From: a virus
IMG/VR virus record: IMGVR_UViG_3300021962_007571
Coordinates: 1 to 64,000 of that record
Direction: 5' to 3' (one strand)
DNA length: 64,000 bases
Shown: positions 27,418-50,041 of the stretch, piece by piece
Numbering within the stretch: the first letter of the stretch is position 1
Layout: every line of letters starts with the position of its first letter
Position numbers and translations under genes: made by a program
The notes under the pieces: generated by a model
Told to the model about the DNA's origin: nothing
Seen by the model: the letters and a program-made list of their open reading frames with translations, nothing else
Database searches by the model: none

Positions 27418-27801
27418 TTAGCAACAAGGATTATCTGAAATAAAACTATCTTGGATATTGACAAACAATCGTTCTCTGATTGGGACGATTAGGTCTCCTT
27501 GGTCATTTTTTAACATAAACTGACCTTCGTATCTACCGACCTTATTGGTGTCTTTCTTTTTGAATTGGTAGTAAATATAATATTCTGTAGGAGTATTTGG
27601 GTCTACAAAAGTTTTTGAGACAAACCCTGCGGCTTTACCAGTTATCTTAGGGATACCTGTTTCAGTATCAATCATAGTGAAAATAATAGAAGAAGATTCT
27701 ATCAAATCCATAAATTTATGATAGTCACTTCTACCATCTTTAACTACTTGCATTTTAAGAATAGGTAGGGTTGCGTTCTTTTTAATAAAAAATTCCATCA
27801 A
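27418..27801 (-). CDS. BppU-N/Ig-like small structural protein
   Basis: FFIKKNATLP...YYQFKKKDTNKVGRYEGQF..LIVP pattern; upstream TATTTAT motif. Confidence 0.5.
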   Translation of the reverse strand: MMEFFIKKNATLPILKMQVVKDGRSDYHKFMDLIESSSIIFTMIDTETGIPKITGKAAGFVSKTFVDPNTPTEYYIYYQFKKKDTNKVGRYEGQFMLKNDQGDLIVPIRERLFVNIQDSFISDNPCC

Positions 27802-27863: not shown

Positions 27864-28667
27864 TTACAACATAATATCAAAATATTCTCTCCAATCAGAT
27901 TTAATTAAATGAAATAAATCTTTTTGTTTAGAATAACAGATATCAAATATCTTCTCATCACTACCAATATATCCATCATTAATTGACTCTTCTATTGTAT
28001 TAACAACTAAGTCCAATAAATTATCTATTAAATGTGAAGGTAATAAAAATGCGGTTCCCTGTATATGTCTTATCTGTGATAAACTATGATATTCTTTATT
28101 TGGTATTGTAAAATCTTCATTGTGACTAAAAAATGTGATTTTGTTAGGGTCCAAAGATTTAACTTTTAATATGTTTGGCCATTTTTTGTTTTTATAAAGA
28201 TTAATATCATTTCTTAAACCTCCAGCATCTGCCCAAATAACAATATCATTATTAAAATAATTGTTGTCTATAGTGTCTTTAAGAAAAAAAACTTTGTTAA
28301 ACATTATTATGTTGTATAAAGGTTGACACATTTCGGGAACATCGGGGAAACTAACCTTAGATTTAAAATCTTCTGAAAACATTAGACCACTTAAAGAGTC
28401 GTAATATTTTTGATACATAGGTAACTCAGATAGAGGTTTCTCAATAAAGATAGTTTTTTCAAGATTAGGGTCAAACTCTTTTCTATATTTAGTTAATTCG
28501 TCAACAAATTTAGATTCTGTGTATACCACAATATTACAATCTAATGATAGTGTATTTCTCATCCACCAACCATAGGTGTGATAAGACATTCTAAAATTAT
28601 TCCAATTTTCTCTACCAATATCATATAGAGCCATTACTATAACAGGATTATTTATATCCATTCCCAA
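27864..28667 (-). CDS. HtrL/YibB (WlaTC)-like glycosyltransferase
   Basis: VMALYDIGR, YNIIMFNK..F, WADAG, GSDE patterns. Confidence 0.65.
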   Translation of the reverse strand: MGMDINNPVIVMALYDIGRENWNNFRMSYHTYGWWMRNTLSLDCNIVVYTESKFVDELTKYRKEFDPNLEKTIFIEKPLSELPMYQKYYDSLSGLMFSEDFKSKVSFPDVPEMCQPLYNIIMFNKVFFLKDTIDNNYFNNDIVIWADAGGLRNDINLYKNKKWPNILKVKSLDPNKITFFSHNEDFTIPNKEYHSLSQIRHIQGTAFLLPSHLIDNLLDLVVNTIEESINDGYIGSDEKIFDICYSKQKDLFHLIKSDWREYFDIML

Positions 28668-29407
28668 TTAACTTTAATATTTTTATGTTGAATATCCACT
28701 TCGTTTACATCAAAATAATTTGAAGTGTTATCAGAGTTTATTAATGTACTTAATTTAAATCCGTACTTATTTAAAACTGTAGGGACAAATCCTTCAGAAT
28801 ATGCGTAATACCCGTTATTGTTAAGCTCAAGTAATTTTTTTAACGCCTTATTTGAAAATCTTGTTGTCGGGAAAAACGAACCAAACATTTCGTTAGTTTC
28901 TTCAGGTAGTACGTCTCCGTCACCAGGAAATCTATCAAACCAAAGACTTTTTGAGAAAGTTTTATTGTCAATAGTTGGCACATTTTGTTGTGAGATTACC
29001 CCGTCTTTTTTAAAACAAAAATATGACATAAAATCAGAATCATCTTTGTCTGTTCCTAAGAAAAACTCTTCCCAATTTTTTATTTTAATATCATCATCAA
29101 AAAACCAATAAAAATCGTAATTAGGATTTTTCACATAAAAGTATAACATCCTTAAATGAGCAAAAAACCAAATAATATTTCTATTACCATACGAGTTCCA
29201 ATAATGATTTTTACTAACATCTATGTTAAAATTAAGATTTTCTCTAATTTCTTTTTCGGTATATTTAAATCCGACATCAAATGAAGAATCATTTGTAATA
29301 TCTGACACCCAAATTAATCTTTTATCTTCTTTTGGAAAATTATTCCAATTATCAACATAACTTGGGTACATATTAGGTGTTGTACAAACACAATTTATAT
29401 TATTCAT
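28652..29407 (-). CDS. Putative GT-A glycosyltransferase
   Basis: YDFYWFFDDDI (DxD), RFSNKAL, YSEGFVPT; inside the GT operon. Confidence 0.55.
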   Translation of the reverse strand: MNNINCVCTTPNMYPSYVDNWNNFPKEDKRLIWVSDITNDSSFDVGFKYTEKEIRENLNFNIDVSKNHYWNSYGNRNIIWFFAHLRMLYFYVKNPNYDFYWFFDDDIKIKNWEEFFLGTDKDDSDFMSYFCFKKDGVISQQNVPTIDNKTFSKSLWFDRFPGDGDVLPEETNEMFGSFFPTTRFSNKALKKLLELNNNGYYAYSEGFVPTVLNKYGFKLSTLINSDNTSNYFDVNEVDIQHKNIKVNWEWI

Positions 29408-30218
29408 ATTCTTTAGTTAAAATTTCATTCCATTCAGGAATTCTATTAAATTGATGTACTATATCGTACTTTAAATTTTCGTGAGTAAAAACTTCATTAC
29501 CGACTAACTGAGCAACTCCGCCATATCTACCTATAAATCCGTTTTTAAAACCCCAACTTTCAAAAAATTGTGTTGGTCCGCCTAAAGCACAATGTAACGT
29601 CCACCCTTCAGTAACTTCAAATATTCTTAAATTATCAATTTTATTTTCAAATATCATAATAATTAAAGCCGCTTGGTCTTTAATGTTGTGGTTATTTAAT
29701 CCGTTTTCACACATCAAAAACAGTTCATCGTACAATTTAATTAATGACTCTCTTTTACCTCCAATAACTCCTGAACAAATAATGTCTTGATTTAAACACT
29801 TACCAAAGTATTCGGGAAAAACCTTATTTATTACGTCAGTATTCCAAGGTTCCTGTATTAATTTTAACCCTTCAGAACCTACAAATACGTCATAGTTTAA
29901 ATCCATTTTAGTAAAAGGGTCTGATTGGAATACAACATCAAAAACGTCAGTGATTAAGAATAAATCTATATCACTAGTTTTTAAAAATTCTAATGTTTTA
30001 CCAAGTCTTTTATGATTAATATAATAGGTATCGTCAATACTAACAGGTATTGATATGATACCAATTTCTTCACACATTTTAATTTCTTCTTCAGTTGAGT
30101 TGGCACATAATAGGATAATATCACCATCCGAATATTTTTTAAAACTTTTTGACCATACTTTTATTTTATTAAAATTTAATTTAATATTATTTGATAATCC
30201 TAATAACGCTTTTTTCAT
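29400..30218 (-). CDS. Putative GT-A glycosyltransferase with PLOD/LH3-GT-like motifs
   Basis: ITDVFDVVFQSDP, ICSGVIGG, KDQAAL, VHQFNR. Confidence 0.6.
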   Translation of the reverse strand: MKKALLGLSNNIKLNFNKIKVWSKSFKKYSDGDIILLCANSTEEEIKMCEEIGIISIPVSIDDTYYINHKRLGKTLEFLKTSDIDLFLITDVFDVVFQSDPFTKMDLNYDVFVGSEGLKLIQEPWNTDVINKVFPEYFGKCLNQDIICSGVIGGKRESLIKLYDELFLMCENGLNNHNIKDQAALIIMIFENKIDNLRIFEVTEGWTLHCALGGPTQFFESWGFKNGFIGRYGGVAQLVGNEVFTHENLKYDIVHQFNRIPEWNEILTKEYE

Positions 30219-30225
30219 ATGTTTT

Positions 30226-30795
30226 TTAACAATTATTTAAAGATAAATTTAATTCTTCATTAAAGTTTAAAATTGTCGGCCAAAGATACTCAACACAGTA
30301 ATTGGTTTGATTTATTATTTCAGTTTTAGACAAAGTTTCTTTTATTTTTTTATAATATTCTAAACTATTTTTTAATATTAATTTTTTAGATACTATACAT
30401 TGGGCAGAACTAATAAATTTTATTGGTTGGTTATATGAAATATTATTTCTATTTGCATATTCTATTGTCTTTTCTAATTCATTACCGTCTCGAATATAAG
30501 TACAACCTAAAGGATAAAATTCGGTTTTAAAATCAAAACCATTAACTTTTTCAATAAACGACGGGCAATGGTCAAAAGGATAATCTTGAGAGAAACAAAC
30601 ATAGTCAGGTAAGTTTTCATAATTATCTATCATATATGTTAGATACGCAATAGTGTCGAAACCAACATTAGGTAAATTATTTTCAAACTTACTATTATTT
30701 TCAGGATTTTTATTATAGACAATGTTAGGGTATTTTATATTACTTAACCATTCTAAATTTCTATTGTAATGACAAACAATTACTACCAAATCCAT
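30226..30795 (-). CDS. DUF3431-like protein (putative glycosyltransferase)
   Basis: CHYNRNLEW, YNK, LPNVG, YLTYMIDNYENLPD, QDYPFDH, AQCIVSK, EYLW. Confidence 0.65.
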   Translation of the reverse strand: MDLVVIVCHYNRNLEWLSNIKYPNIVYNKNPENNSKFENNLPNVGFDTIAYLTYMIDNYENLPDYVCFSQDYPFDHCPSFIEKVNGFDFKTEFYPLGCTYIRDGNELEKTIEYANRNNISYNQPIKFISSAQCIVSKKLILKNSLEYYKKIKETLSKTEIINQTNYCVEYLWPTILNFNEELNLSLNNC

Positions 30796-30797
30796 TT

Positions 30798-32048
30798 TTA
30801 TAATTTTCCTTCAATTTTATCACACCATCCTTTAGATTCAGAATGAGGCCATACAACCCAATACGATGGTTTTTCTGCGGTTAAAAATTCTCTCCAAATT
30901 TTACAATAACCATCTTTATCATTCTTCAATCTATTGATTTCATTTTTATCGGCGTCTTTTCTATGTAAAGTTTCACCACCTTCTCTATGAAACGCAACCA
31001 CCCAAAAATCGTAATCCGTTTCAGATACTTGACTTAAACTAACATCAATACAATGTTTAAAAATTTGTGAAAAACTATTAATCCATTCTTCTTCATTTTC
31101 AAAATTATATGTGTTAGGAGGATATTTTTTATCTAAAGTTTCTTGTTGTACTGCCCTTTTACCAAATAAAATACCCGCATATTTTTCATAGTCACGTAAA
31201 GTTCTTTCAGTACCAAAACCAAAAATACCAAATTCTTCAGGGTCAAATACTTCACCATCCATACTAAATAATCTTCTATTTTTAGAATGTGAAAATTTAT
31301 TCTTCTCTCCCCAAGTTTTATCATCATCCCATTGTTTAGTTCTACCTTTACGAGTGTATTCGTGCCAACAAATAATTTTATGTGGGTGAAATAAATCATA
31401 TCCGTGAGTATAAGCTCTTGCGGCAATAGAAATTTCTTCACCGTGGAAATAAAATTCAGGGTCGTGTTGTACTTCTTTGGCAAACGAGCCTAAAGTAAAT
31501 GCGAAATGTGCGGAATAGAACCTACTCGGTACTGGTTCTTCTAAAGTATCCCAATTAGGGATTGTTTCAGGTAAAAAGAATATCGCGCCTTCAGGAATAA
31601 ATCTATCAAAAGACATTCTCCAAGGAACCATAACTCTACCATTTGGGTCGTTCTCTGGGTCAAAAGAAGATACATAACTTGTTAGTAAAGGTTTTTTATA
31701 ACCCTTTTCTTGTAGTTGTTTAATCATATTAATAGACATCTCATCCCAATCTTGTTGAAATCTCATATGAGAATCTATTTGTAAAGTATACTCTTCTCCA
31801 TCATATAACTGTTGAGTTAGATTTCTTGCCCAACAAACACCTTTAGACTCTTCATAAGGAATATTTAAAATTCTAAATCTATTATCATTTTCATACTCAG
31901 ACAAATCATCAAACTTATCATTAGGGTGAAATTGTCTTGCAATTGAAAAAATTAAGTTCTCAGGATTTTTAGCCTTACTAATGGCATCCTTAATAGTTGG
32001 TATTAGTTGGGGGTCTCGATAAGACGCAATTTGGATAAAAATTTTCAT
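30798..32048 (-). CDS. GT60-type polypeptide/hydroxyproline N-acetylglucosaminyltransferase
   Basis: IFIQIASYRD, SKGVCWAR..Q.LY.GE.Y.LQIDSHMRF, FHGEE...RAYTHGYD, ERTL.DYE match the Gnt1/OGNT (GlcNAc) family pattern. Confidence 0.8.
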   Translation of the reverse strand: MKIFIQIASYRDPQLIPTIKDAISKAKNPENLIFSIARQFHPNDKFDDLSEYENDNRFRILNIPYEESKGVCWARNLTQQLYDGEEYTLQIDSHMRFQQDWDEMSINMIKQLQEKGYKKPLLTSYVSSFDPENDPNGRVMVPWRMSFDRFIPEGAIFFLPETIPNWDTLEEPVPSRFYSAHFAFTLGSFAKEVQHDPEFYFHGEEISIAARAYTHGYDLFHPHKIICWHEYTRKGRTKQWDDDKTWGEKNKFSHSKNRRLFSMDGEVFDPEEFGIFGFGTERTLRDYEKYAGILFGKRAVQQETLDKKYPPNTYNFENEEEWINSFSQIFKHCIDVSLSQVSETDYDFWVVAFHREGGETLHRKDADKNEINRLKNDKDGYCKIWREFLTAEKPSYWVVWPHSESKGWCDKIEGKL

Positions 32049-32095
32049 ATCATTATTTTAGATACTAAAATATAATAAACAAAGAGTGAATATAA

Positions 32096-32126
32096 ATAAA
32101 AAATCCCCCAAGTTAGTTGGGGGATT
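32096..32126 (-). terminator. Intrinsic terminator after the collagen-like gene
   Basis: Minus strand ATCCCCCAA-CTAAC-TTGGGGGAT followed by TTTTT. Confidence 0.8.
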
Positions 32127-32150
32127 GTCAAATATTGTGTGATGTTATTT

Positions 32151-33008
32151 TTAATATATTTTATTTAACACAAATATGTCAGAGTATATTGAATTTAAAG
32201 CACTATTACTACTAAATTCTACTGTAACATCTAACGTATTTGAAACCGTGGTATTAAATGTTGTGTTATTAACCGTATTAAAGGCAAAACCTTCAGGTGC
32301 CGCATTAGATTGCTTTGTGGTATGAAATACTCCAAGGGACACAATTTCTCCAACTCCAGCAACACCTGTGTTTCTAATTGTGAAATTTATTGAGAATTGC
32401 CATACGTCATTTACCGCACCATTCATATTTTGAAGTCCACTATCAGCTAAAACAACTGAACCTGCTTTAACTCGTATTCTAATATCGTCGCCATTTCTTG
32501 ATGATAACAAACCTCCAAAATCGGCTCTAAAACTATCTCCAATTTGGAATTGGTTAGGCCCTACAGTAAGGGTACCTACACCACCATTGATTATTGATGA
32601 TTCTACAGTTGTGGCACTTACCACAACACTGTTACCTGTTTGAGAAAATAAACCATATACCGTAGGGAATGGTGCTGGTGGAGCAGATGTTCCTGAAGAA
32701 CCGCTAGTACCACTAGTTCCATCAGTACCTGAAGTACCACTAGTTCCATCAGTACCTGAAGTACCACTAGTTCCATCAGTACCTGAAGTACCACTAATAC
32801 CATCTGTTCCAGAATTTCCTGAAGTCCCACTAGTACCATTATTACCTGAAATACCACTAGTACCTGAAGTCCCATTTTGAGTTACCGCAGAAAAAGGTAT
32901 TGACTCAGTTTGTCCTGAAGCTACAGTATTGTAGTTTACGATAACCATCAAAGAATCTGAATATCCTGTGGTCGCTTTTGGTAATAATGATATTGGTAAA
33001 TCCGCCAT
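32151..33008 (-). CDS. Collagen-like fibre protein with a C-terminal beta-sandwich (BclA/C1q-like architecture)
   Basis: 21 contiguous Gly-X-Y triplets followed by a ~170 aa beta-rich domain. Confidence 0.7.
   Translation of the reverse strand: MADLPISLLPKATTGYSDSLMVIVNYNTVASGQTESIPFSAVTQNGTSGTSGISGNNGTSGTSGNSGTDGISGTSGTDGTSGTSGTDGTSGTSGTDGTSGTSGSSGTSAPPAPFPTVYGLFSQTGNSVVVSATTVESSIINGGVGTLTVGPNQFQIGDSFRADFGGLLSSRNGDDIRIRVKAGSVVLADSGLQNMNGAVNDVWQFSINFTIRNTGVAGVGEIVSLGVFHTTKQSNAAPEGFAFNTVNNTTFNTTVSNTLDVTVEFSSNSALNSIYSDIFVLNKIY
32685..32873 (-). repeat. Gly-X-Y collagen repeat (27-bp GTSGTSGTD units)
   Basis: Tandem gtaccactagttccatcagtacctgaa units. Confidence 0.9.
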
Positions 33009-33016
33009 TGTATTTT

Positions 33017-33274
33017 TTATTTTTTATTTAATTCCATATAATATTGTAAACCTGACTTGTTATTAGGTACAATATTATCATCATTTAATTCGTTACTACC
33101 TAAATAAACAATCTCTTTTTCGATTGTGTAAAGGTCTAAGAATTTAGTTGTTTTTTTAATTTCTGTTTTAAAATCGGCAACTTTGATGTTGTCGTTTAAA
33201 TCAAGCGAAGTAACGTAATTTTGTATGTTACCCTCACCTTTTAGTTTTACTGTTATTTGTGTTTGATATCTCAT
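33017..33274 (-). CDS. Ubiquitin-like (beta-grasp) protein
   Basis: QITVK/LDLNDNIKVADFKTEI/IVYLGSNELNDD align by eye with ubiquitin QIFVK/LEVEPSDTIENVKAKI/LIFAGKQLEDG. Confidence 0.45.
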   Translation of the reverse strand: MRYQTQITVKLKGEGNIQNYVTSLDLNDNIKVADFKTEIKKTTKFLDLYTIEKEIVYLGSNELNDDNIVPNNKSGLQYYMELNKK

Positions 33275-33275
33275 A

Positions 33276-35327
33276 TTAGTCCCACCATATGTAATCGTTT
33301 ATCATATCCCAACTGGTATATTCATTGTCTATTGTAATTTGTTTTACTTCATCATTAGAAATCATAGTTAATAGATATTGACCATCAATATTATTTTTTA
33401 CAACATATCTATCTTTAACTGCGTAAACATCGTTCCAATAATCATCTTCAATAAGAGTACTATTTAATAGTGCCCCGTTAAAATTGTATAGATTAACTCT
33501 TAAATTATCGGAGTTAGTAAGGTAAACATATAAGAAGTTATCTTTACCAATTCTTAAATCTCTTTCACCAAAATCTTCAGGTAAAGTAAATTGATTACTT
33601 ATTGAATCTTTAGTTAAAACTCTAGCGGTTGAATTTTGAGAATTATATAAAAGAATATTTGAATTTGTAGAATAGTATTCTTGAGTGTAATAATTAGTTG
33701 ATGTATTAATATCATTATACACTTCTGTTTGTGTATACCCTGTTACTTGGTTATTAACATAGTAACCATCCTCGTAATTAGTCATATAAAAAGTTCCATA
33801 ACTTGTTGAAATATTATACCAACTAGGTATTGGAAATCCTAATGAATCGACTAATTCACCGTTTAAGAATAATCTATGGTTAGCGTATGAGTCACCATCG
33901 GTAGTGTAACTATAATTAAAATAATCACCAAACCAATTAGTATTCCATCCGTTTATATCATTATAACTTACATTTGTTGATGTGATATTAACACCATTTT
34001 CAGTTATTGAGAAAACCGATGAATTAGTGTCACCTGTCGAACATATTGTATAAAAAGTCTTATTTCCCCAAGAATAAGGATAAAAAGTTTTATCATTTGA
34101 ACCGCTATTTTGGAAAGTATAGGTTGTAAGTTCGGTTTGATTTTCTAATCTATAAATAATATCTAAATAACTAACTTCATATCCACCACCTGTGTAATAA
34201 TTCCCCGTACCGTTATATAAGATAATAAAAATACCTCCAGAAGGAACATCGTCAGGATAAAATTTTGTTTCGTACTGAGTTGTTATATTAGTATAATTAT
34301 TACCTCTTACGTGGGTTGTTGATGAAACGTAATCAGTAACACCGTTATAATTATTAATTAAATAATCAATATTATCATCATCACTATTCCACATAGTAAT
34401 GTTAAATGATTTATCACCATACCATTGAAAATACCACTGATTGTATGTGTTTGGTATTATTAATAAATCAGACTTTACTGTAAGTGACGTGTCGTAAATT
34501 TTTAGAGAACTAAGTGTATTATTACTTATCAAATAAGATAATTCGTAAAAATAATTTGACGAATAATACGTACCATAATATCTTTGTTCAATAGTATAGT
34601 CCCAACTATTAATTAATTCGGTAGAACCATTATTATTGACTTTATATGAATATGCCGTGTTATTGTCATTATTATAAATTACGAAAAAGAATGAACCGTC
34701 TTGACAAGTTCCGTCCCAATCCCATTGAATATCTAAACTTTCATAATTTGAGTCAAATGTATATTGATAAACTGATTTACCGTTAAACCAATAAAATAAC
34801 CCTCCATCAGGGTCTTGGAAATAAACAATTCTACCATCTATTATACCAGAATTAGAGTCAAAGGTAGTTGCACTGAATTGTTCAACAACATTCCCATTAA
34901 CATCAATAAACAATGATAAACGTTCAGTATAACCATCATTACGAAAATCTAATAAACAACCACTTTCAGATAATGGATACCAGTTGTTGATATTCCAATA
35001 TGTCGTATCAACACCTAAATCTATAATTTCAGCGGTAAAGTCGTTAAAGTTTAAGAACCCTAAACTAAAAGTTGTTTGACCTGAAACATTACCTAATTGC
35101 ATATAATTTTGGTTTTGTCCGTAAGGCTCTGAAACTGTTAATGTATAAACATAATCGTATGTTGTTGATGAAATAGTATACTCACCATAAGGTAATTCAC
35201 TATAATAATTGAAAGGTATTGTCTTAATACCTAAGTCAATTGGTGTTCCACCTGTCATTGGTTGGAACGTAACATTTGCGGTCTGTCCCGATAAATTATT
35301 ACTTGTTATTCTAACTCCTATAGCCAT
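33276..35327 (-). CDS. Tyr/Asn/Thr-rich beta-structured virion protein
   Basis: 683 aa, aromatic-rich with a beta-strand-like pattern; upstream TATTTAT motif. Confidence 0.5.
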   Translation of the reverse strand: MAIGVRITSNNLSGQTANVTFQPMTGGTPIDLGIKTIPFNYYSELPYGEYTISSTTYDYVYTLTVSEPYGQNQNYMQLGNVSGQTTFSLGFLNFNDFTAEIIDLGVDTTYWNINNWYPLSESGCLLDFRNDGYTERLSLFIDVNGNVVEQFSATTFDSNSGIIDGRIVYFQDPDGGLFYWFNGKSVYQYTFDSNYESLDIQWDWDGTCQDGSFFFVIYNNDNNTAYSYKVNNNGSTELINSWDYTIEQRYYGTYYSSNYFYELSYLISNNTLSSLKIYDTSLTVKSDLLIIPNTYNQWYFQWYGDKSFNITMWNSDDDNIDYLINNYNGVTDYVSSTTHVRGNNYTNITTQYETKFYPDDVPSGGIFIILYNGTGNYYTGGGYEVSYLDIIYRLENQTELTTYTFQNSGSNDKTFYPYSWGNKTFYTICSTGDTNSSVFSITENGVNITSTNVSYNDINGWNTNWFGDYFNYSYTTDGDSYANHRLFLNGELVDSLGFPIPSWYNISTSYGTFYMTNYEDGYYVNNQVTGYTQTEVYNDINTSTNYYTQEYYSTNSNILLYNSQNSTARVLTKDSISNQFTLPEDFGERDLRIGKDNFLYVYLTNSDNLRVNLYNFNGALLNSTLIEDDYWNDVYAVKDRYVVKNNIDGQYLLTMISNDEVKQITIDNEYTSWDMINDYIWWD

Positions 35328-35368
35328 TTTATTTTTTTATTTATAAATATCAATTGATATTATTTAGT

Positions 35369-38300
35369 TTATTGTATTAACCATTTATTTTTAAGATATA
35401 ACGTTAACGTTGATAATTCTGTTGGTGATAACGCCCTACTATAAGCTAAAACGTCAAATAAAAATCCGTTTAAATAGAACTGAGCAACTCCCGCGGGAGC
35501 CCCTGTGTAGGAAACACCTAAGAACATATATGTAATTAATGATGAAGTTAATGTCCCTACATTTGAAGAAAAAGTTAATGATTGTTGAACCCCATTAATA
35601 TAGAATTTAAGTCTATCAATATTTGTTAATCCTCCACCATCAAACACTAATGTTAATATACGAGCATCATTATTTACAATCCCACCGCTAGCAAAACCAT
35701 TAGCAATGGCCACATTATATGTACCTCCACTTTGTCTAATGTAAGACGCGTTTAATCCTGTATTACCATCTTCACCTCCTTGGATATATTGTTGTGTGGT
35801 GCCAGTATTTAATGTTTTAGCAACTAATACTAAAGTCTGACCTGATTTGGATGATAAATCAGTTAATGGGTTAACACTTAAACCGTCCGAGGTACCATTA
35901 AAGTAAACCCCACCTAAACCATTTTGTATATTACTCCACCATTCAGGTGCAGGTACAGGTCCTCCGCCAATAGGGTTTGCGTTATGTGCGGAAGACGATG
36001 AGTCAGTCCATTGAGTAAATGTACTTCCACTTGTTGGTACTGGATTAAAATATGATGATAAATCACCTTGATAATATATTTCTAGTGTAGGGTCAGATGG
36101 AGGTGGTGGAGGTACTGGAGTCGGAGTAGGGGTTGGAGTCGGAGTAGGGGTTGGAGTTGATGTAGGTGTTGGTGTTGGAGGTATTGGGGTAGGTGTTGGT
36201 ATTGGCGTTTCAGTAGATGTAGGTATTGGCGTTTCAGTAGATGTTGGTGTAGGTATTGGCGTTTCAGTAGATGTTGGTGTAGGTATTGGCGTTTCAGTAG
36301 ATGTAGGTATTGGCGTTTCAGTAGATGTAGGTATTGGCGTTTCAGTAGATGTTGGTGTAGGTATTGGCGTTTCAGTAGATGTAGGTATTGGCGTTTCAGT
36401 AGATGTTGGTGTAGGTGTTGGCCCTACTAATAACTCATACCAAATACAAACAGGTTCTCCCTCAATAAAATCAACAGGTGAAGGTTGGATTAATACTAAT
36501 GGGGACGTTCCAGGATTAATACCTCCGTTTATTAAACCACCGAATTCATTTGAGAATGAAAATGGGTTACCTTGATAAATTGCGGTATTTTCATTTTGAC
36601 TAAAATAGATTAAATAATTGTTTGTTAATAATTGTATATAATAATCATATAAATTATTCCCCTCATTATCTATAAAATTAAAATCAACTCCGTTTATATC
36701 AAAAGTATTTGGATTTAATATTCCTTGACCAGTCCCAAGATTTGAAAATTCAGGAAATATTATATTACCCTCTGTTGGGTAAAAATAAGGTAATGTTATT
36801 AAATTAAAACATCCGCCAGTTACTACTAAAAATTCAGGTATAAAATCATTGTTAGGTATTATTTCAGAACCTAATCCATCGTTTGGTATGTGATTGTCGT
36901 AGAAATCATTAAATGGAATATAACCTCCATTTAAATCATTATTAGGAATATACCCACCATTTAAATCGTTATTAGGAATATACCCACCATTTAAATCGTT
37001 ATTAGGAATATATTCTACATTTAAATCATTATCTAATATATTGTCACTATCAATATCATTATTTGGTATGATTAAATAATTGATATCGTTTGGAGGTGTA
37101 GAGTTACATTGTATGATTAGCTTATCACCATTTTCTTGTAAAACATAAAAACCATTTTCTTGTAATAAAAAACAATTTTCAATAGGAGTTGGTGTTGCAG
37201 TAGGTGTCGGAGTTGGTGTCGGAGTTGGTGTTATCGTAGGTGTAGGTGTCGGAGTTGGTGTTGGAGTTGGTATTATCGTAGTAGTAGTTGTAGTAAATGG
37301 ATTGGTAGTAGTAGTTGTAGTAAATGGATTGGTAGTAGTAGTTGTAGTAAATGGATTGGTAGTCGTAGTTGTGGTAAATGGATTGGTAGTCGTAGTTGTA
37401 GTAAATGGATTAGTGGTTGTAGTTGTGGTAAATGGATTAGTGGTTGTGGTCGTAATGATAACATCACAATCAGGACAATCAGGATTAAATAAATCAAAAG
37501 TATCTTTTAATAATAAGAAATTGTGTTTAACCTCATCGGCAGATAAAGGTTCAGTATACATTCTAAATTGCGTTATACCACCATCAAAAGAACCTGCAAA
37601 ATTTTGTTCAATTAATATGTGTGTTGTTAGCGCAGATAATGATGTACCACTTAATATATTATTAGGAAAACACTCAGGGTCTTGTTGATATGTTAGTCCT
37701 GTTAATGTTTCAGGACAACCTGTGAATGTTAAGTTATTATGTAATCCTTGTGTACCACCACCCCAAGATATATTGTAAGGAACACCAACCTGTCTTTCTT
37801 TTTCCGTATCAAGACCTCTTGGAATAATTTCTTCAATATTTTCAAAAATGTAAAATACTCGTCCATTAACATAAACTTTTATTCTACCTTGTCTATATTC
37901 TTTTTCAATTAACCATCTTTCATTAAGTTTAACCACCTCTATTTTTTCAGGAGGGGTAGAACCACTACTAGTTACTGGCGGCTCAATTAACTTAACTGAT
38001 TCATTAAGTAATGAAAACAAATAAGGGTTAGTTGATATTAAACCTAGACCCCCTTTATACCAAAGGTCACAAGTGTCTAACCAAGTATACCTTTCCCATA
38101 CCAAATCTAACTGTACCCAATGTTCTTGACTTAAAAACGCAGGATTTATTTGTGCACAAAAATCGTAAATTCCTTTAGGTGTACATAAATTCTCGACAGT
38201 ATATCCTGTTTGATAAGTTATTCCTGTCGTTGAACAAGTTCCTGTTGTAACACAATCACCAGTAAAACGTAAAATTCTAACACCTATTTGAGGGTTATGT

Positions 38301-39346
38301 GGGTCACCACAAAGTTTAAACGCCAAGGCATTTGACATTGAATCAAATAAAGGGTCTTTATCAGGTTCAATTTTTGTATCAATAGTTGCGGCACACCCAC
38401 AATTACAATTTAGACCGTGAGAAACTATTTCATTTGTTGGTTGGTATACTTCAATACAAGACGAATTAGTAACTCCTGTATCAGAACAAGCACAAGTTTT
38501 TAAACACGTTAAAGTTTCAGTAACTCTAGTGTAACCTGTATCAGATACAGGACTTCCACTTGCGTGGTGATAAAATTTATTTTCAGCTCTTGTACCTAAA
38601 TAAAAGAAAATATCTTTGTTATTGGGATAAAAGTTATTTAGTGTCGTTTGACCTATTGGTGGATTATATTCATCAACAAATCTTGGTTTTAATAACAACT
38701 CAACGGTCCAACCTTTATTAACCCTTTCAGGATATAAAGTGTAGTCATACCCAAATAACTTATAAAATCCTTGGTAAAACCCTCCGTATAACTCGTGATA
38801 AACTCCGACCTTAGGGTCTTGTTTTGAAACTATATTATATGATATGTCTAAAGGTAATCCTGAAAATCTAATATTTGGAGATTGGGTATATCCTGTAACT
38901 TGGTGTAATTTTAATCTTCTGTCAAAATATAATCGTTCAAACTTTAAAAAGTCTGAGAACAATCCCTCAGTTACCGTAATTGTTTGTCCTGTCATTTCAG
39001 ACACCAAACCATTATCAATACCCGTCAAACCAATATCACATATAGTTTTTGCGGTATAACAATTTAAATCAATATTATTAGGGTTATAATAATTTGATGA
39101 AACTAAGTTGTTATACTGATTATATTGGTTAAATGTCAAAACAAATAACTCACTATTATCAGGATTATTTAAATCAAAACTAAATGGTAACCTATTTCCG
39201 TCATTTTCGGCAATTAGGTTTGGGGAAAAGATTACCTCCTCCTTATAGTCCCTCTCATCGGATGCCAAAGAAAAATCTTGTATTTCCGACTTATTTAGGA
39301 GATACCACTTATTAAAATTATATTGGTTTATATTTTGATATGCCAT
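35369..39346 (-). CDS. Large virion surface protein with LamG/ConA-like domains and mucin-like stalks
   Basis: FDGGITQFRMYTEPLS and FLFDVLAYSRALSPTE are LamG-type C-termini; Thr/Pro repeats lie between them. Confidence 0.7.
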   Translation of the reverse strand: MAYQNINQYNFNKWYLLNKSEIQDFSLASDERDYKEEVIFSPNLIAENDGNRLPFSFDLNNPDNSELFVLTFNQYNQYNNLVSSNYYNPNNIDLNCYTAKTICDIGLTGIDNGLVSEMTGQTITVTEGLFSDFLKFERLYFDRRLKLHQVTGYTQSPNIRFSGLPLDISYNIVSKQDPKVGVYHELYGGFYQGFYKLFGYDYTLYPERVNKGWTVELLLKPRFVDEYNPPIGQTTLNNFYPNNKDIFFYLGTRAENKFYHHASGSPVSDTGYTRVTETLTCLKTCACSDTGVTNSSCIEVYQPTNEIVSHGLNCNCGCAATIDTKIEPDKDPLFDSMSNALAFKLCGDPHNPQIGVRILRFTGDCVTTGTCSTTGITYQTGYTVENLCTPKGIYDFCAQINPAFLSQEHWVQLDLVWERYTWLDTCDLWYKGGLGLISTNPYLFSLLNESVKLIEPPVTSSGSTPPEKIEVVKLNERWLIEKEYRQGRIKVYVNGRVFYIFENIEEIIPRGLDTEKERQVGVPYNISWGGGTQGLHNNLTFTGCPETLTGLTYQQDPECFPNNILSGTSLSALTTHILIEQNFAGSFDGGITQFRMYTEPLSADEVKHNFLLLKDTFDLFNPDCPDCDVIITTTTTNPFTTTTTTNPFTTTTTTNPFTTTTTTNPFTTTTTTNPFTTTTTTNPFTTTTTTIIPTPTPTPTPTPTITPTPTPTPTPTATPTPIENCFLLQENGFYVLQENGDKLIIQCNSTPPNDINYLIIPNNDIDSDNILDNDLNVEYIPNNDLNGGYIPNNDLNGGYIPNNDLNGGYIPFNDFYDNHIPNDGLGSEIIPNNDFIPEFLVVTGGCFNLITLPYFYPTEGNIIFPEFSNLGTGQGILNPNTFDINGVDFNFIDNEGNNLYDYYIQLLTNNYLIYFSQNENTAIYQGNPFSFSNEFGGLINGGINPGTSPLVLIQPSPVDFIEGEPVCIWYELLVGPTPTPTSTETPIPTSTETPIPTPTSTETPIPTSTETPIPTSTETPIPTPTSTETPIPTPTSTETPIPTSTETPIPTPTPIPPTPTPTSTPTPTPTPTPTPTPVPPPPPSDPTLEIYYQGDLSSYFNPVPTSGSTFTQWTDSSSSAHNANPIGGGPVPAPEWWSNIQNGLGGVYFNGTSDGLSVNPLTDLSSKSGQTLVLVAKTLNTGTTQQYIQGGEDGNTGLNASYIRQSGGTYNVAIANGFASGGIVNNDARILTLVFDGGGLTNIDRLKFYINGVQQSLTFSSNVGTLTSSLITYMFLGVSYTGAPAGVAQFYLNGFLFDVLAYSRALSPTELSTLTLYLKNKWLIQ
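36100..36422 (-). repeat. PT / PTSTETPI tandem repeats
   Basis: 24/30-bp units gtaggtattggcgtttcagtagat(gttggt). Confidence 0.9.
36843..37075 (-). repeat. IPNND(L) acidic repeats (30-bp units)
   Basis: YIPNNDLNGG repeated, plus degenerate copies. Confidence 0.85.
37186..37452 (-). repeat. (TTTTTTNPF)n followed by (PT)n
   Basis: About 6-7 tandem Thr-run-NPF units, then a PT dipeptide run. Confidence 0.9.
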
Positions 39347-41996: not shown

Positions 41997-43214
41997 ATGA
42001 CAAAAATTAATGTACTAGTCTTACCATCAGATAAAACGGGTGTTGGTAAATTTAGGTCTGTAGACCCTCACATCTTTTTACAAAAATTATATCCTGAAGA
42101 TTTTCACGTAGATATTGATTACGAGCCAAAATTAAATGACCCTAACTATTGGAAGAAATACCAAATAGTTCATTTCCATAGAAATATTGGTCAAAACTAC
42201 GAAGCGACTCCACAAATTTTAAAATGGTTAAAGAGTCAAGGTATCATCACAATTGGTGATATTGATGACTATTGGATGCCCACCCAAGAACATCCAATCT
42301 ATCATTTAATTCAACAACATAAACTAAATGAAAAGATTGTTAAAAATCTAAAAGAGGCGGAATACGTAACTACAACTACTAATCTATTTGCTAACGAAAT
42401 TAAAAAGATTAATAAAAATGTTGTGGTGTTCCCTAACGCAATTGACCCAAGTGAACCCCAATTTTGTGAACCAACATTAGAAAGTGATAGACTTAGAATT
42501 GGTTGGTTAGGAGGTTCTTCTCACTTACACGACTTAATGTTAATTGATGGTTCCTTAAGTAAACTTGGTTCAGATAGAAATAATACTCAATTTGTTCTTT
42601 GCGGATTTGACACTAGAGGAACGGTAACAGAAATTAATAAGAATACAGGAGAACAAACTCAGAGACCTATTAGACCTGAAGAAACTGTTTGGGTTAAATA
42701 CGAAAAAATTATGACAAGTAATTATTACGGAGTGTCTGATGATTATTTAAAATTCTTAAACAAATATAAAGAAGAGGTTTATCCTAATGAAATTGACCAA
42801 CCTTATTTGAGAGTTTGGACACGACCTGTTACATCTTACGCTAAAAATTATTCAAAATTTGATGTATCTTTGGCACCAATTAAAAATCACATTTTCAATA
42901 GAATGAAATCTCAACTTAAAGTTATTGAGGCAGGGTTTTATAAGAAAGCGTTAATCGCATCTGAAATTGGTCCATATACTATCGATTTAAAACACGCATA
43001 TAAAGATGGACAATATACTAAAGGTGGTAACGCATTTTTAGTTAGTGAAAATAGAAATCATAGTGATTGGTATAAAAACATTAAAAGATTAATGAATAAC
43101 CCTAATTTAGTTACAGATTTAGGGGAAAGTTTATACGAAACAGTTAAAGATACTTACGATTTAAATAATGTCACAAAAACAAGAGCTGAGTGGTACAAAT
43201 CCTTAATTAAATAA
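41997..43214 (+). CDS. GT-B (GT4-like) glycosyltransferase
   Basis: DIDDYW, PNAID, IGWLGGSSH, DVSLAP...FNRMKSQLKVIEAG. Confidence 0.85.
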   Translation: MTKINVLVLPSDKTGVGKFRSVDPHIFLQKLYPEDFHVDIDYEPKLNDPNYWKKYQIVHFHRNIGQNYEATPQILKWLKSQGIITIGDIDDYWMPTQEHPIYHLIQQHKLNEKIVKNLKEAEYVTTTTNLFANEIKKINKNVVVFPNAIDPSEPQFCEPTLESDRLRIGWLGGSSHLHDLMLIDGSLSKLGSDRNNTQFVLCGFDTRGTVTEINKNTGEQTQRPIRPEETVWVKYEKIMTSNYYGVSDDYLKFLNKYKEEVYPNEIDQPYLRVWTRPVTSYAKNYSKFDVSLAPIKNHIFNRMKSQLKVIEAGFYKKALIASEIGPYTIDLKHAYKDGQYTKGGNAFLVSENRNHSDWYKNIKRLMNNPNLVTDLGESLYETVKDTYDLNNVTKTRAEWYKSLIK

Positions 43215-43215
43215 T

Positions 43216-43917
43216 ATGATAAAAATACCTATTACTAAAATTTTATTTTTAGACATTGAAACTGTTGGTGGTTGTAAAGATTATGAATCTTGTAAAACGA
43301 GTAACCCTAAAGTCGCTGAACAATTTATTAAATACATCGATTGGTTTCAAAAAAGATTTCCTGAAGATTCTCAATTATCTTTAGATGAGATATTCGCAAA
43401 GAGAACCGCACTTGTTCCTGAGTTTGCCAAAATTATTTGTGTTAGCGTAGCATTTGTTATGGATAACGGAGAAATAAAAAGACAAACATTTTCAGGTGAC
43501 AATGAACAAGAATTATTATCAGGAGTTCAAAAATTATTAGATAGATGTGGTAAATTAGATTTCCATCTATGCGGACATAATCTTAAGAATTTTGACATTC
43601 CTATGTTGGCAAAACGTATGATTATCAATGGATTATTACCACCGTCAATCTTACCTTCATACGACACTAAACCTTGGGAAATCAAAGCTATTGATACTAA
43701 AGAAATTTGGCAGTACGGAGCTTACACCGCCATAGGTTCATTAGATTTAATGTGTGCTTGTATGGATATTCCATCTCCAAAAGAAGGAGAAGTTACAGGG
43801 TCTAAAGTACACGACGCTTATTGGAATAAAAATATGTTAAATGAAATTTCAGAATACTGTGAAAGAGATGTTGACGTATTAATAGACGCAATTAAAAAAC
43901 TTAAAAATTTAAAATAA
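43216..43917 (+). CDS. PolB-like DEDD 3'-5' exonuclease
   Basis: FLDIETV, GHNLKNFDIP, YCERDV. Confidence 0.85.
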   Translation: MIKIPITKILFLDIETVGGCKDYESCKTSNPKVAEQFIKYIDWFQKRFPEDSQLSLDEIFAKRTALVPEFAKIICVSVAFVMDNGEIKRQTFSGDNEQELLSGVQKLLDRCGKLDFHLCGHNLKNFDIPMLAKRMIINGLLPPSILPSYDTKPWEIKAIDTKEIWQYGAYTAIGSLDLMCACMDIPSPKEGEVTGSKVHDAYWNKNMLNEISEYCERDVDVLIDAIKKLKNLK

Positions 43918-43918
43918 T

Positions 43919-44482
43919 ATGTTAGATATCCAAAATATTGAAGATATGTTCGGAGATGACGAACAAGAACTTAAAGAAATGTTAAAAGGAATGGGGGTTG
44001 ATTTAGATTCCCTTGAAAAAGAGTTTCAAGATTACAAACCAAAAAAAGAGTTAAGATATGAAACATTATCTTACGATACCGTTAAACCTAAATATAATTA
44101 CCCTTCTGACTCAGGTTTTGACCTTCATTCAACAGAAGAAATTATTGTTGAGGCGTTTGGTAGAGCTTTAGTCCCTACAGGTTTGAAGTTTAATATACCA
44201 ACAGGTACTGAAATACAAGTAAGACCTAAAAGTGGTTTGGCAATCAATCAAGGACTTACCGTGTTAAATACTCCAGGTACTGTAGATTCAGGATATAATG
44301 GAGAGGTTAAGGTTATCATATTTAACACGACAAAAGAACCATTTAAAATCACTAAAGGGATGAAAGTAGGACAAGCGGTATTGTGTCCCGTTATTAATGG
44401 TGAGTGGGTAGATTTAATTGAGGTTGACTCAGTTGAAAATAAAGATAGAGGAGAAAACGGATTTGGTTCCACAGGAATTTAA
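43919..44482 (+). CDS. dut: Trimeric dUTPase
   Basis: SGFDL, RPKSGLA, GTVDSGYNGE, RGENGFGSTG. Confidence 0.95.
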   Translation: MLDIQNIEDMFGDDEQELKEMLKGMGVDLDSLEKEFQDYKPKKELRYETLSYDTVKPKYNYPSDSGFDLHSTEEIIVEAFGRALVPTGLKFNIPTGTEIQVRPKSGLAINQGLTVLNTPGTVDSGYNGEVKVIIFNTTKEPFKITKGMKVGQAVLCPVINGEWVDLIEVDSVENKDRGENGFGSTGI

Positions 44483-44484
44483 TT

Positions 44485-45045
44485 ATGGATAATTTAATAT
44501 ATACAATGAGACCTAAAGGTACTCATTTTGAAAAGGGATTTAGAGAGTTTTGTAACGAAATAAAACAAGTCATAGGGGAATCACCTGTTATTGTTGAGCT
44601 TGGTTCTTATATGGGAGAAAGTAGTTTAATATTTTCAGAAGAATTCCCAAACGCAAAAATTTACTGTATCGATACTTGGGAAGGCGGATTTGATAATTTA
44701 GATAGTTGTAGTAATCAAAATTATAACCAGGTTGAATCTCAATTTGACCTAAGACTAAAACTATCTAATAATATTACAAAAATAAAAAGTCTATCTACAA
44801 GTGAAAAAATTGAGTGTGATTTAGTCTATATTGACGCCTGTCATAAATATGAATGCGTTAAGGAAGATATACTACATTGGTTACCATTAACTAAAAAAGT
44901 TATTTCTGGTCACGATTATTATACTAATCAATCGTTTATTAATAGTCATCCTCATATTGCAGGTGTTAAAGTTGCCGTTGACGAGTTTTTGGGTTCTCCT
45001 GATAAAACATTTGTGGACGGGTCTTGGTTTAAAATTAAAAGTTAA
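44485..45045 (+). CDS. Class I SAM methyltransferase (Methyltransf_24-like)
   Basis: VELGSYMGES, IDTW, YIDACHKYE, GHDY. Confidence 0.85.
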   Translation: MDNLIYTMRPKGTHFEKGFREFCNEIKQVIGESPVIVELGSYMGESSLIFSEEFPNAKIYCIDTWEGGFDNLDSCSNQNYNQVESQFDLRLKLSNNITKIKSLSTSEKIECDLVYIDACHKYECVKEDILHWLPLTKKVISGHDYYTNQSFINSHPHIAGVKVAVDEFLGSPDKTFVDGSWFKIKS

Positions 45046-45047
45046 AT

Positions 45048-45752
45048 ATGGTAACAGTACATATTATAACATATAATGAAGAAGTTATGATTGGTTTCTG
45101 CATTGAACATTACAGAAAAAAATTTCCAAATTGTATTATAAAGATTTATGACAATTATTCAACAGACAATACAGTCGCAATTGCTGAAGGTTATGGTTGT
45201 GAAATTTCAAATTACAATTCTTACGATAAATTTGATGAACAAACTTTGATTAAATTAAAAGACACGTGTTGGAAAAATTCTGAAACGGATTGGGTTGTTG
45301 TTTGTGACTGTGATGAACTAATTGATATAACCCAAGAAGAACTAGTTAATGAGCATAAAAACGGTACTACTTTGTTTAAATTCACAGGTTATAATATGGT
45401 AAACACTGGTGATACTATTAATTTAAATGAAATTTGTTACGGTTATGCCGATAATATATATGATAAAATATTATTATTTAATAAGTCAAAAATATCTGAA
45501 ATAAACTATAGGCCAGGTTGTCACACCGCAAAACCAAAAGGAATTATTAATTATAACGGTAACAATTATAATATGTTACATTATAAATTTTTAGGTGCGG
45601 AATATACCGTAAATAGATACAGATTGTTTGCAAATAGATTGTCAACCTTAAATATGAAAAAGAAATGGTCTATCCATTATACTGAACACGAATCAAATTT
45701 GTTAGAATTTTATAAACAAATACCGTCAAAAGATTTAAAAAAATTATTATAA
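45048..45752 (+). CDS. GT2 glycosyltransferase
   Basis: TYNEE, YDNYSTDNT, WVVVCDCDE. Confidence 0.85.
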   Translation: MVTVHIITYNEEVMIGFCIEHYRKKFPNCIIKIYDNYSTDNTVAIAEGYGCEISNYNSYDKFDEQTLIKLKDTCWKNSETDWVVVCDCDELIDITQEELVNEHKNGTTLFKFTGYNMVNTGDTINLNEICYGYADNIYDKILLFNKSKISEINYRPGCHTAKPKGIINYNGNNYNMLHYKFLGAEYTVNRYRLFANRLSTLNMKKKWSIHYTEHESNLLEFYKQIPSKDLKKLL

Positions 45753-45755
45753 TTT

Positions 45756-47264: not shown

Positions 47265-47344
47265 AATGAGAAATAAATTAACGAGTATTTAATCCTCTAT
47301 TTATATCTCAATTAAAAACATTACAATTATATAAAAAAACAAAT

Positions 47345-48082
47345 ATGACTGAGAGAAGAAAAAAAGTAACGACTCAACCACAAAAAGAAAATGAGTATAA
47401 ACCGACACTATCTAAAAAAGAACTTATTTCACAAATAATAAAGAAAAAAACCAAAGAAAAGTTCTTATCTGAAAGTCAAAGAAAGTATTATGATATTTTA
47501 ACTAAAAATCAAATTACCATTTGTTCAGGACCTGCAGGTGTTGGTAAGAGTTATATCTCTATGAAAGCTGCGGTTGACTTATTATCCGACCCAACAACTC
47601 CTTACGAAAAAATTATTATTGTTAGACCCGCAGTTGAAGCGGAAGAAAAACTTGGTTCTTTACCAGGTAATGTTGAGGAGAAATTGGACCCTTACATTTT
47701 CCCATCTTACTATCTATTAAACAAGATAATCGGAAAAGAGACAAGAGAAAAATTAAAAGAGATTGAAGCTATTGAGGTGTTTGCCTTAGCTTATATGAGA
47801 GGTATGAACATTGACAATTCAATTTTAATTTTTGAAGAAGCTCAAAACTCAACACCAAGTCAAATGAAACTTTTATTAACCCGTATTGGGTTTAATTCTA
47901 AGTTTTTCTTATCGGGAGATTTAGAACAGTTTGATAGACATAAAGATAAAACACAAACAGGATTATGGGACGCTCTTAAGAAATTTCAAAATGTAGACGA
48001 TATTGGTACTTTTGAATTTAAACCTGAGGATGTAGTGAGAAACCCATTAATTAGTAGAATCTTAAAAAGATACGAAGAGTAA
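47345..48082 (+). CDS. phoH: PhoH-family ATPase
   Basis: GPAGVGKS, RPAVE, LGSLPG, YMRG, EEAQN, GDLEQ, VVRNP. Confidence 0.95.
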   Translation: MTERRKKVTTQPQKENEYKPTLSKKELISQIIKKKTKEKFLSESQRKYYDILTKNQITICSGPAGVGKSYISMKAAVDLLSDPTTPYEKIIIVRPAVEAEEKLGSLPGNVEEKLDPYIFPSYYLLNKIIGKETREKLKEIEAIEVFALAYMRGMNIDNSILIFEEAQNSTPSQMKLLLTRIGFNSKFFLSGDLEQFDRHKDKTQTGLWDALKKFQNVDDIGTFEFKPEDVVRNPLISRILKRYEE

Positions 48083-48110
48083 TAATACTCTTATTAGAAA
48101 AAACAAATTT

Positions 48111-48982: not shown

Positions 48983-48984
48983 TT

Positions 48985-50040: not shown

Positions 50041-50041
50041 T

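Follow-up and report, generated by a model that had tools for sequence, protein, structure and literature searches.

Why would a tailed phage keep a run of glycosyltransferase-type genes directly beside genes for threonine-rich, fibre-like proteins? The question is raised by an island at positions 27864 to 39346 of a 64,000-nucleotide stretch of viral DNA (hereafter the window), which is the first 64 kb of the 83.5-kb IMG/VR contig IMGVR_UViG_3300021962_007571 (~26% of a genome by CheckV; GC 30%). The window carries genes for a T4-type tail sheath, a baseplate hub, a neck protein, a family-B DNA polymerase, a helicase and nucleotide metabolism, and on this gene content we classify it as a piece of a jumbo myovirus. 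Complete relatives measure 294-322 kb, with direct terminal repeats in one. An earlier note on this DNA had proposed that the island O-glycosylates the phage's own particle, with an enzyme of glycosyltransferase (GT) family 60 as the primer. Every comparative test that we ran was consistent with this proposal, while its account of the variable genes, of one enzyme label and of the transcription unit needed correction. We consider it fairly probable that the island directs O-glycosylation of sheath and fibre-type proteins of the phage itself, initiated by GT60 and diversified by cassettes, and that it does so across a large clade of aquatic jumbo myoviruses. To our knowledge, only a few examples of glycosylated phage particles have been described, and the GT60 family has so far been characterised only in protists.

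On the minus strand, the island runs in the order 1325-aa, 683-aa, 85-aa and 285-aa collagen-like genes, followed by genes for GT60, DUF3431, a 272-aa protein, a 251-aa protein and HtrL_YibB. The open reading frames (ORFs) reported earlier were all present at their positions on this strand. The five enzyme-type genes are:

30798..32048, minus strand: GT60-family glycosyltransferase, 416 aa, soluble (PF11397, 235 bits; phrog_24687, 1e-168)
30226..30795, minus strand: DUF3431 protein, 189 aa, cassette gene (PF11913, 58 bits)
29400..30218, minus strand: predicted 272-aa GT-A glycosyltransferase of the retaining GT8/GT24 type, cassette gene (AlphaFold model and Foldseek)
28652..29407, minus strand: predicted 251-aa GT-A glycosyltransferase, GT31/GT6-like, cassette gene (AlphaFold model and Foldseek)
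27864..28667, minus strand: HtrL_YibB-family protein, 267 aa (PF09612, 94 bits)

The assignment of the 416-aa protein to GT60 held up well. It matches PF11397 ('GlcNAc', which equals CAZy GT60) with 235.3 bits, where the cut-off is 21, and the match covers positions 2-43 and 95-348 of the 352 in the profile. Its D92-S93-H94 (QIDSHMRF) does not vary among 16 relatives (71-91% identity), and we take this triplet to be the catalytic DxD/DxH-type metal motif of GT27/GT60. Sequence and profile searches of the PDB found no solved relative of the protein. Those GT60 enzymes that have been characterised are polypeptide alpha-N-acetylglucosamine (GlcNAc) transferases, which either initiate mucin-type chains on domains rich in Thr or act on the hydroxyproline of Skp1 (PMC8724618, PMC6939170), and from the family match we propose that the 416-aa enzyme is an initiating polypeptide GlcNAc transferase. 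A P4H-type oxygenase (prolyl hydroxylase) was found neither in the contig nor in three complete relatives. Therefore Thr/Ser, rather than hydroxyproline, is the likelier acceptor if the acceptor is a protein.

The remaining four proteins had been counted, with GT60, as five GT-like genes. Three of the five have a GT fold or family. The 272-aa and 251-aa proteins lack a Pfam match and have hundreds of environmental relatives, and they are predicted to fold as GT-A glycosyltransferases. The 272-aa model (pLDDT, AlphaFold's confidence score, 93.6) lies nearest in Foldseek to the UGGT catalytic domain, glycogenin, LgtC, XXYLT1 and Mimivirus R699 (E ~1e-9; GT24/GT8), and the 251-aa model (pLDDT 95.7) to B3GalT5, B3GNT2, CHSY3 and Fringe (GT31; E 7e-6 to 2e-4). 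Acidic motifs are invariant in each family, D91xxD94 (TDVFDV) in the former and D104-D-D106 (FFDDD) in the latter. The label 'PLOD-GT-like' for the 272-aa protein is not supported: the window's protein has no match to GT_PLOD (PF25342) and only one of 33 relatives does (E 0.002), while five of the 33 match Nucleotid_trans and the fold is of a generic retaining GT-A type nearest GT24/GT8. The other two proteins, DUF3431 and HtrL_YibB, belong to glycan-locus-associated families whose GT activity is unproven, and thus the five become three GTs plus two such families. Comparison of DUF3431 and HtrL profiles with GT profiles by hhalign was uninformative because the profiles built here were shallow. 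The 267-aa HtrL scores 94 bits against a Pfam cut-off of 24.1 and 91.8 against the equivalog cut-off of 264.9 of NCBIfam TIGR02192 (E. coli YibB). It is a short form; most relatives carry a 557-aa fusion of HtrL to a GT-like domain (57 loci). We considered whether the 251-aa protein is the split-off C-terminal domain of this fusion and rejected the idea, since BLASTP shows no similarity. None of the window's island proteins has a signal peptide or membrane segment, with no 19-residue Kyte-Doolittle mean reaching 1.6.

The nearest Atlas/PDB look-alikes of the 251-aa and 272-aa enzymes, Mimivirus R699 among them, are from Nucleocytoviricota (giant viruses). Because of these look-alikes, there is a hint that giant viruses and this phage share a viral GT pool.

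How widely is this arrangement kept? IMG/VR holds 335 relatives of the GT60 gene, of which we analysed the best 80 (70-91% identity) with 10-kb flanks. GT60 behaves as a single-copy core gene: there are 335 GT60 stretches versus 302 polB stretches, and in 24 of 39 polB-anchored loci GT60 lies within 10 kb, with the gene found further away in all five of the remainder that were checked (5/5). GT60 is therefore about as conserved as the DNA polymerase. Around it runs a common frame, which begins with a 285-aa gene on the opposite strand, the 1325-aa family (a conserved N-terminal part of ~600 aa, the rest variable) and variable fibre-type genes, and continues with GT60, a variable cassette of 1-10 genes, an HtrL-type gene (usually the 557-aa fusion), the 127-aa family and the DNA polymerase. 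Only GT60, the HtrL-type gene and the 127-aa gene are conserved across the island loci. Metagenomes from several studies, of marine, estuary, plankton and lake origin, contain near-identical DNA; by megablast, the island DNA matched nothing among cultured phages.

Across 60 loci, we counted at least 29 architectures of the cassette between GT60 and the HtrL-type gene. Representatives of 52 families found in the cassettes match GT2, GT10, GT25, GT31, GT32, GT34, GT77, GT_PLOD, DUF273 and Caps_synth, and further matches are to FkbM/TylF and other methyltransferases, DegT aminotransferase, nucleotidyltransferase, GNAT and HAD families. The window's own combination of DUF3431, 272-aa and 251-aa genes occurs in 5 of 81 loci (DUF3431 in 4-5 of 81), which are scattered over three to four positions in the GT60 tree; cassettes thus move from one background to another. 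In the five loci with this cassette, all four that were readable have a GTS collagen-like gene directly upstream of GT60. The DUF3431, 272-aa and 251-aa proteins, named earlier among the enzymes that extend the glycan, thus turn out to be one rare, exchangeable cassette, with only GT60 and the HtrL-type gene kept.

Variability of this kind resembles that of O-antigen loci, and the HtrL_YibB and GT25 families are known from the core loci of lipopolysaccharide (LPS) and lipooligosaccharide (LOS). An alternative reading is therefore that the island's product is a new or altered non-protein glycoconjugate of the infected cell (LPS core, capsule or lipid-linked glycan), which could block superinfection or alter receptors, and that the Thr-rich fibre genes adjoin it only through a shared hypervariable recombination region. 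That most bacterial GT60 loci have no Thr-rich neighbours (counts below) fits this alternative as well. However, all characterised GT60 enzymes act on polypeptides (PMC8724618, PMC6939170), the 52 cassette families contain no membrane segment (Kyte-Doolittle, 19-residue mean 1.6), and the Pfam tally of the cassettes contains no lipid-carrier initiating transferase, flippase, transporter or polymerase family. With the sheath loop described next, which lies far from the island, we judge host-glycan remodelling to be quite unlikely.

If the phage glycosylates its own particle, acceptors should be sought among its Thr-rich proteins. The candidates in the window, and the neighbours that go with them, are:

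16216..16359, minus strand: Thr-rich loop, aa 284-331 of the tail sheath (1114 aa; 13864-17208), candidate acceptor in a protein certain to be part of the virion
35369..39346, minus strand: 1325-aa protein, candidate acceptor (translation, tandem arrays, N-terminal conservation in relatives)
32151..33008, minus strand: 285-aa collagen-like protein, candidate acceptor (PF01391; PHROG tail-fibre matches through the repeat)
27418..27801, minus strand: 127-aa protein (p127), candidate acceptor family, present in 75/80 loci
33276..35327, minus strand: 683-aa protein of the fibre-type gene run, without a Pfam or PHROG match
33017..33274, minus strand: 85-aa protein, 93% conserved at the same position in locus L006, without a family match
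56032..56103, plus strand: Cys-flanked TTTTTT insertion in a 512-aa protein (sequence compared with relative G001)

The loop in the tail sheath is the best-anchored of these candidates, as far as sequence can tell. The sheath itself is identified by phrog_23 (1.5e-55) and by homology of its C-terminal 400 residues (aa 701-1114) to T4 gp18, and the loop lies in the lineage-specific N-terminal part, at one fixed position in 62 of 64 distinct relatives; the exceptions are L248, which lacks it, and L233, which has a larger, different insert. The loop comprises ~40 residues bracketed by Cys, arranged as a T-run or PT-run, NPC, another T-run or PT-run, and C. Its sequence drifts between TTTTTT and PTPTPS while T+S+P stays at ~50-60%, and the median Thr fraction is 0.27 in the loop versus 0.087 in the rest of the protein. 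Such selection for Thr/Pro composition at a site remote from the island argues against the host-glycan alternative and is compatible with glycosylation of the particle.

Thr-rich tracts are also concentrated around GT60. We scored as mucin-like any segment of 20 aa with T+S+P of at least 70% and T of at least 35%. Upstream of GT60 on the same strand, 122 of 276 ORFs (44%) contained one, as against 36 of 505 downstream (7%) and 0 of 310 on the opposite strand; collagen-like repeats showed the same side preference (18 upstream ORFs versus 1 downstream). Most of the downstream mucin-like ORFs are extended p127-family members or their neighbours. Genome-wide, 6 of 368 ORFs were mucin-like in one complete relative. 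Across the 80 relatives, Thr/Pro-rich and collagen-like ORFs are thus strongly enriched close to GT60, and genes of fibre type and of the p127 family flank the island.

In the window, the repeats described earlier for the 1325-aa protein, (TTTTTTNPF)x6, (PT)n and (PTSTETPI)n, are all present in its translation, with arrays of periods 27, 6/12 and 24/54 nt in the gene. They form mucin-like stalks at aa 630-726 and 972-1083, and between the two stalks a 30-nt repeat (x4.3; 36903-37063) encodes IPNNDLNGGY units. A C-terminal LamG-like domain falls below the cut-off (Laminin_G_3, E 4e-4). The ~625-aa N-terminal part is conserved upstream of GT60 in 29 of 80 loci. The 683-aa protein has full-length relatives in L006, L007 and L009, and a module of ~70 aa from it recurs elsewhere in ORFs downstream of p127. 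We infer that both proteins are virion parts. The collagen-like protein was also as described: it has ~20 G-T-S/G-T-D triplets and matches PF01391 with 35.6 bits against 27.2 (aa 49-106), followed by a globular C-terminal part. Because X in the repeat is mostly Thr or Ser and Pro is absent, formation of a triple helix is not assured.

The p127 family ends in CC, and many relatives are extended beyond it by CPxC/CPxCPxC motifs, by runs of TTTTTT or PT and by a small domain at the end. Extended members include those of L019, L040, L049, L052 and L065, tandem paralogues occur in L020, L026 and L045, and G001 has a paralogue with PT/QT repeats. Sequence and profile searches found no Pfam or PDB relative of the family. 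We regard the sheath loop and the p127 family as better-anchored candidate acceptors than the 1325-aa and 683-aa proteins. The TTTTTT insertion of the 512-aa protein is specific to the window's sublineage. Because it is missing from the 56%-identical G001 homologue, Thr-run loops seem to be gained and lost in single lineages.

Cultured phages offer a further view of the system. GT60 is encoded, at 44-48% identity, by four cultured jumbo phages: XacN1, Xoo-sp13 and the Stenotrophomonas phages CM1 and RAS14. In XacN1, a carbamoyltransferase gene and two ORFs stand between the GT60 orthologue ORF334 (48%) and, downstream, ORF330, which is orthologous to the 557-aa HtrL fusion over its full length (41% identity), and a 3313-aa PT-linker protein follows the baseplate wedge genes ~9 kb from GT60. 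XacN1 virions carry at least two Schiff-positive glycoprotein bands, which the authors suggest are made by phage GTs, naming neither a GT family nor acceptors (Yoshikawa et al. 2018, PMC5852040). Among 18 XacN1-like loci in IMG/VR, about half have a PT-rich ORF within 10 kb, and in the two most distant contigs, L116 and L118, whose GT60 is 37% identical to that of XacN1, a (PT)n protein lies directly upstream of GT60.

GT60 relatives are further found in bacterial genomes of Bacteroidota, Gemmatimonadota, Verrucomicrobiota, Proteobacteria and Cyanobacteria. Of 69 such loci, 11 have a Thr/Pro-rich ORF no more than 8 kb away, and in records of Jiulongibacter, Arcticibacterium and Saprospiraceae it is adjacent; the 11 of 69, a count made without a matched control, is a hint that some bacterial GT60 genes also have Thr/Pro-rich neighbours. 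The highest-identity matches in 'bacterial' records (63-71%; L279-L286) are small contigs or a 230-kb low-GC contig in metagenome-assembled genomes of Saprospiraceae/Bacteroidia, and these are probably phage contigs binned with their host. For this reason there is a weak hint that the host of this phage lineage is in Bacteroidota.

Are the GT genes and the fibre genes one transcription unit? The earlier note had placed the GT genes directly downstream of the collagen-like and 1325-aa genes. The gene order is confirmed; between the two groups, however, lies a strong terminator:

32102..32126, minus strand: intrinsic terminator between the collagen-like gene and GT60 (10-bp stem with 5 GC pairs, T-run)

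Similar hairpins occur upstream of GT60 in many relatives. The GT genes are a transcription unit apart from that of the fibre genes. A promoter-like motif, TATTTAT, stands within 60 nt upstream of a same-strand start codon in 19 of its 41 copies in the window (~1 expected), with sites for example at 39362, 35349, 32098, 27818, 17249 and 9339. It precedes the genes for the sheath, a 1646-aa tail-region protein, the neck, the 1325-aa and 683-aa proteins, GT60 and p127, and also polB. We dropped the motif as a mark for the timing of GT expression, since only 26 of 80 relatives retain it before GT60 and polB has it upstream as well. Two lake metatranscriptome runs hold short contigs identical or near-identical to the window between 22000 and 41000, covering the SOD-fusion, polB, p127, HtrL, GT60, 683-aa and 1325-aa genes. 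We rejected these contigs as proof of transcription or of its timing, as carry-over of DNA is possible.

A separate unit behind a terminator would suit a second alternative, that the island glycosylates proteins outside the particle, either host proteins during takeover or non-structural phage proteins, by analogy with Gnt1 and Skp1 and with bacterial effector GTs. GT60 is soluble and cytoplasmic like Gnt1, and it is a core gene next to replication genes, both of which speak for such targets. However, a single regulatory modification needs no long, strain-variable extension and tailoring cassettes, the Thr-rich tracts are concentrated in phage proteins around the island and in the sheath, and XacN1 virions do carry glycoproteins (PMC5852040). 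We consider targets outside the particle unlikely.

The position of the island raises a third alternative, in which the GTs hypermodify the phage's DNA, as in T-even, RB69/DLP3 and TET-associated systems. The island lies near genes for DNA polymerase, exonuclease, dUTPase and a methyltransferase, and multi-sugar DNA glycans are known (PMC13326640). In addition, a weak match to TAGT (22 bits, E 1.8e-4, below the cut-off of 27.5) is seen at the C-terminal domain of the HtrL fusion that relatives carry, though the window's 267-aa HtrL lacks a TAGT-like domain. Against this, four relatives at least 91% complete have a single ThyA-family gene, with no second homologue for hydroxymethyl- or hydroxy-pyrimidines, and ThyA of G001 passes the NCBIfam thymidylate-synthase equivalog cut-off (346.7 versus 325). 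GT60 has no known nucleic-acid acceptor. Tet_JBP was absent from the matches in five relatives, but the same search also found none in control genomes. Taken together, these observations make modification of DNA very improbable, and glycosylation of the particle stays the reading that we prefer.

In the complete relatives G007 (C1:48722-50707) and G011 (C1:5332-7607), the single thymidylate synthase gene is split into separated pieces that sit within long or separate ORFs; it looks to have been invaded by an intein or intron-type element. The window also holds a second group of sugar-related genes:

41997..50845, plus strand: second cluster of GT-like genes with a methyltransferase (phrog_7162 GT, 1.7e-43; Glycos_transf_2; Methyltransf_24; HpsN/rhamnosyltransferase-like matches)

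It comprises at least four GT-like genes and the Methyltransf_24 gene, interspersed with exonuclease, dUTPase and PhoH genes. Its 405-aa GT is conserved in relatives, and together with the island it brings the region to about ten GT-like genes in 23 kb.

A potential mechanism for glycosylation of the particle can be outlined from the families and the gene content. The soluble GT60 would transfer the first N-acetylhexosamine (HexNAc), probably GlcNAc from the host's UDP-GlcNAc pool, to Thr or Ser of particle proteins made by the phage itself, at their Thr-run, (PT)n and G-T-S tracts, in the cytoplasm and before or during assembly. Likely acceptors would be the loop in the sheath, the 1325-aa protein with its stalks, the 285-aa collagen-like protein and those p127-family proteins that are extended. 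Extension and tailoring of the glycan would then fall to the genes that lie between GT60 and the HtrL-type gene. In this phage, the extenders may be DUF3431, the GT8/24-like and GT31-like GT-A enzymes and the short HtrL; in relatives they may be GT2, GT10, GT25, GT31, GT32, GT34 and GT77 enzymes, methyltransferases, an aminotransferase, a nucleotidyltransferase and an acetyltransferase. These middle genes appear to be exchanged between phages as cassettes, and therefore the glycan would differ from strain to strain. The donor sugar, the identity of the acceptors and the biological role (shielding, adhesion or stability) are inferred.

Several observations weigh against this reading. PT linkers are common in fibre proteins that are not glycosylated, and the fibre and GT genes could share a recombination hot spot and not be enzyme and substrate. 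The 80 loci share ancestry, so the counts of Thr-rich ORFs around GT60 are not independent events. The island lies beside the DNA polymerase and near nucleotide-metabolism genes. The terminator before GT60, together with the retention of TATTTAT in only a minority of relatives, weakens the case for late co-expression with the fibre genes. By tblastn against cultured phages, neither the N-terminal part of the 1325-aa protein nor the 683-aa protein had a match, which leaves these two without characterised virion relatives in that search. By the criterion used above, 58 of the 69 bacterial GT60 loci lack a Thr-rich neighbour. Finally, the glycoprotein bands of XacN1 have not been assigned to proteins or to ORF334 (PMC5852040).

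We also put forward, tentatively and as a possibility that falls somewhat short of even odds, a broader model: that more than 300 aquatic jumbo phages and XacN1-like phages share an ancient frame of GT60 and HtrL-GT fusion for mucin-type O-glycosylation of sheath and fibres, in which swappable cassettes give strain-specific glycan coats. Such a 'glyco-serotype' locus would mirror, on the side of the phage, the O-antigen diversity of bacteria, and an entire, abundant clade of jumbo phages in aquatic habitats would wear strain-variable mucin-type glycans on sheath and fibres. It would be the first mucin-type (GT60) protein glycosylation outside eukaryotes. Our literature search returned no paper linking GT60 to phages. 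If true, this would bear on phage-host recognition, on the stability and stickiness of particles in water, on evasion of hosts or grazers, and on the evolutionary origin of GT60/GT27 mucin-type glycosylation. Glyco-engineers would gain a soluble polypeptide HexNAc transferase that works in the bacterial cytoplasm. The cultured relatives XacN1, Xoo-sp13, CM1 and RAS14 make the hypothesis directly testable.

How does the island compare with known systems? The closest enzymatic parallel is with protist GT60 (Dictyostelium, Trypanosoma cruzi, Gnt1), with which the phage enzyme shares PF11397 and the DxH-type motif, and it is soluble like the cytoplasmic Gnt1. The substrates of the Golgi enzymes of protists have Thr-rich, mucin-like tracts, and such tracts adjoin the phage GT60 gene. 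Unlike the protist enzymes, the phage GT60 is encoded by a bacteriophage and would act in the cytoplasm of a bacterium, without a type II membrane anchor and without a prolyl hydroxylase.

Among phages, XacN1 is most alike: its GT60 and HtrL-fusion genes are orthologues in unchanged order, they enclose tailoring genes, and a giant PT-linker protein is encoded nearby. It differs in lineage, in its GC content of ~49% (25-kb locus), in its Xanthomonas host and in a cassette with a carbamoyltransferase. In mycobacteriophages, glycans are described on C-terminal extensions of capsid and tail-tube subunits (Freeman et al. 2023, as summarised in PMC12619734); the moraphage of PMC12619734 belongs to a different or unassigned lineage. 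There, too, decoration of a phage's structural proteins has been shown, or proposed, to be the work of GTs that the phage encodes. The GT genes of mycobacteriophages are accessory, whereas here a core GT60 initiator is joined to a hypervariable extension cassette, and the candidate acceptors are internal loops and long stalks of sheath and fibre-like proteins.

Giant viruses (Vp54 of chlorovirus PBCV-1; the fibrils and collagen-like proteins of Mimivirus) likewise use soluble, eukaryote-like GT-A enzymes without endoplasmic reticulum or Golgi, encode collagen-like proteins and include the look-alikes of the 251-aa and 272-aa enzymes. Here, in contrast, the virus is tailed and its host bacterial, and GT60 initiation would replace their N-linked or hydroxylysine-linked routes. 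Bacterial O-antigen and LOS outer-core loci resemble the island in their conserved frame, their variable, horizontally exchanged GT cassettes and their HtrL and GT25 members. Unlike those loci, the island has no lipid-carrier initiating transferase, flippase, polymerase or membrane protein, and its putative initiator is a GT of the polypeptide type.

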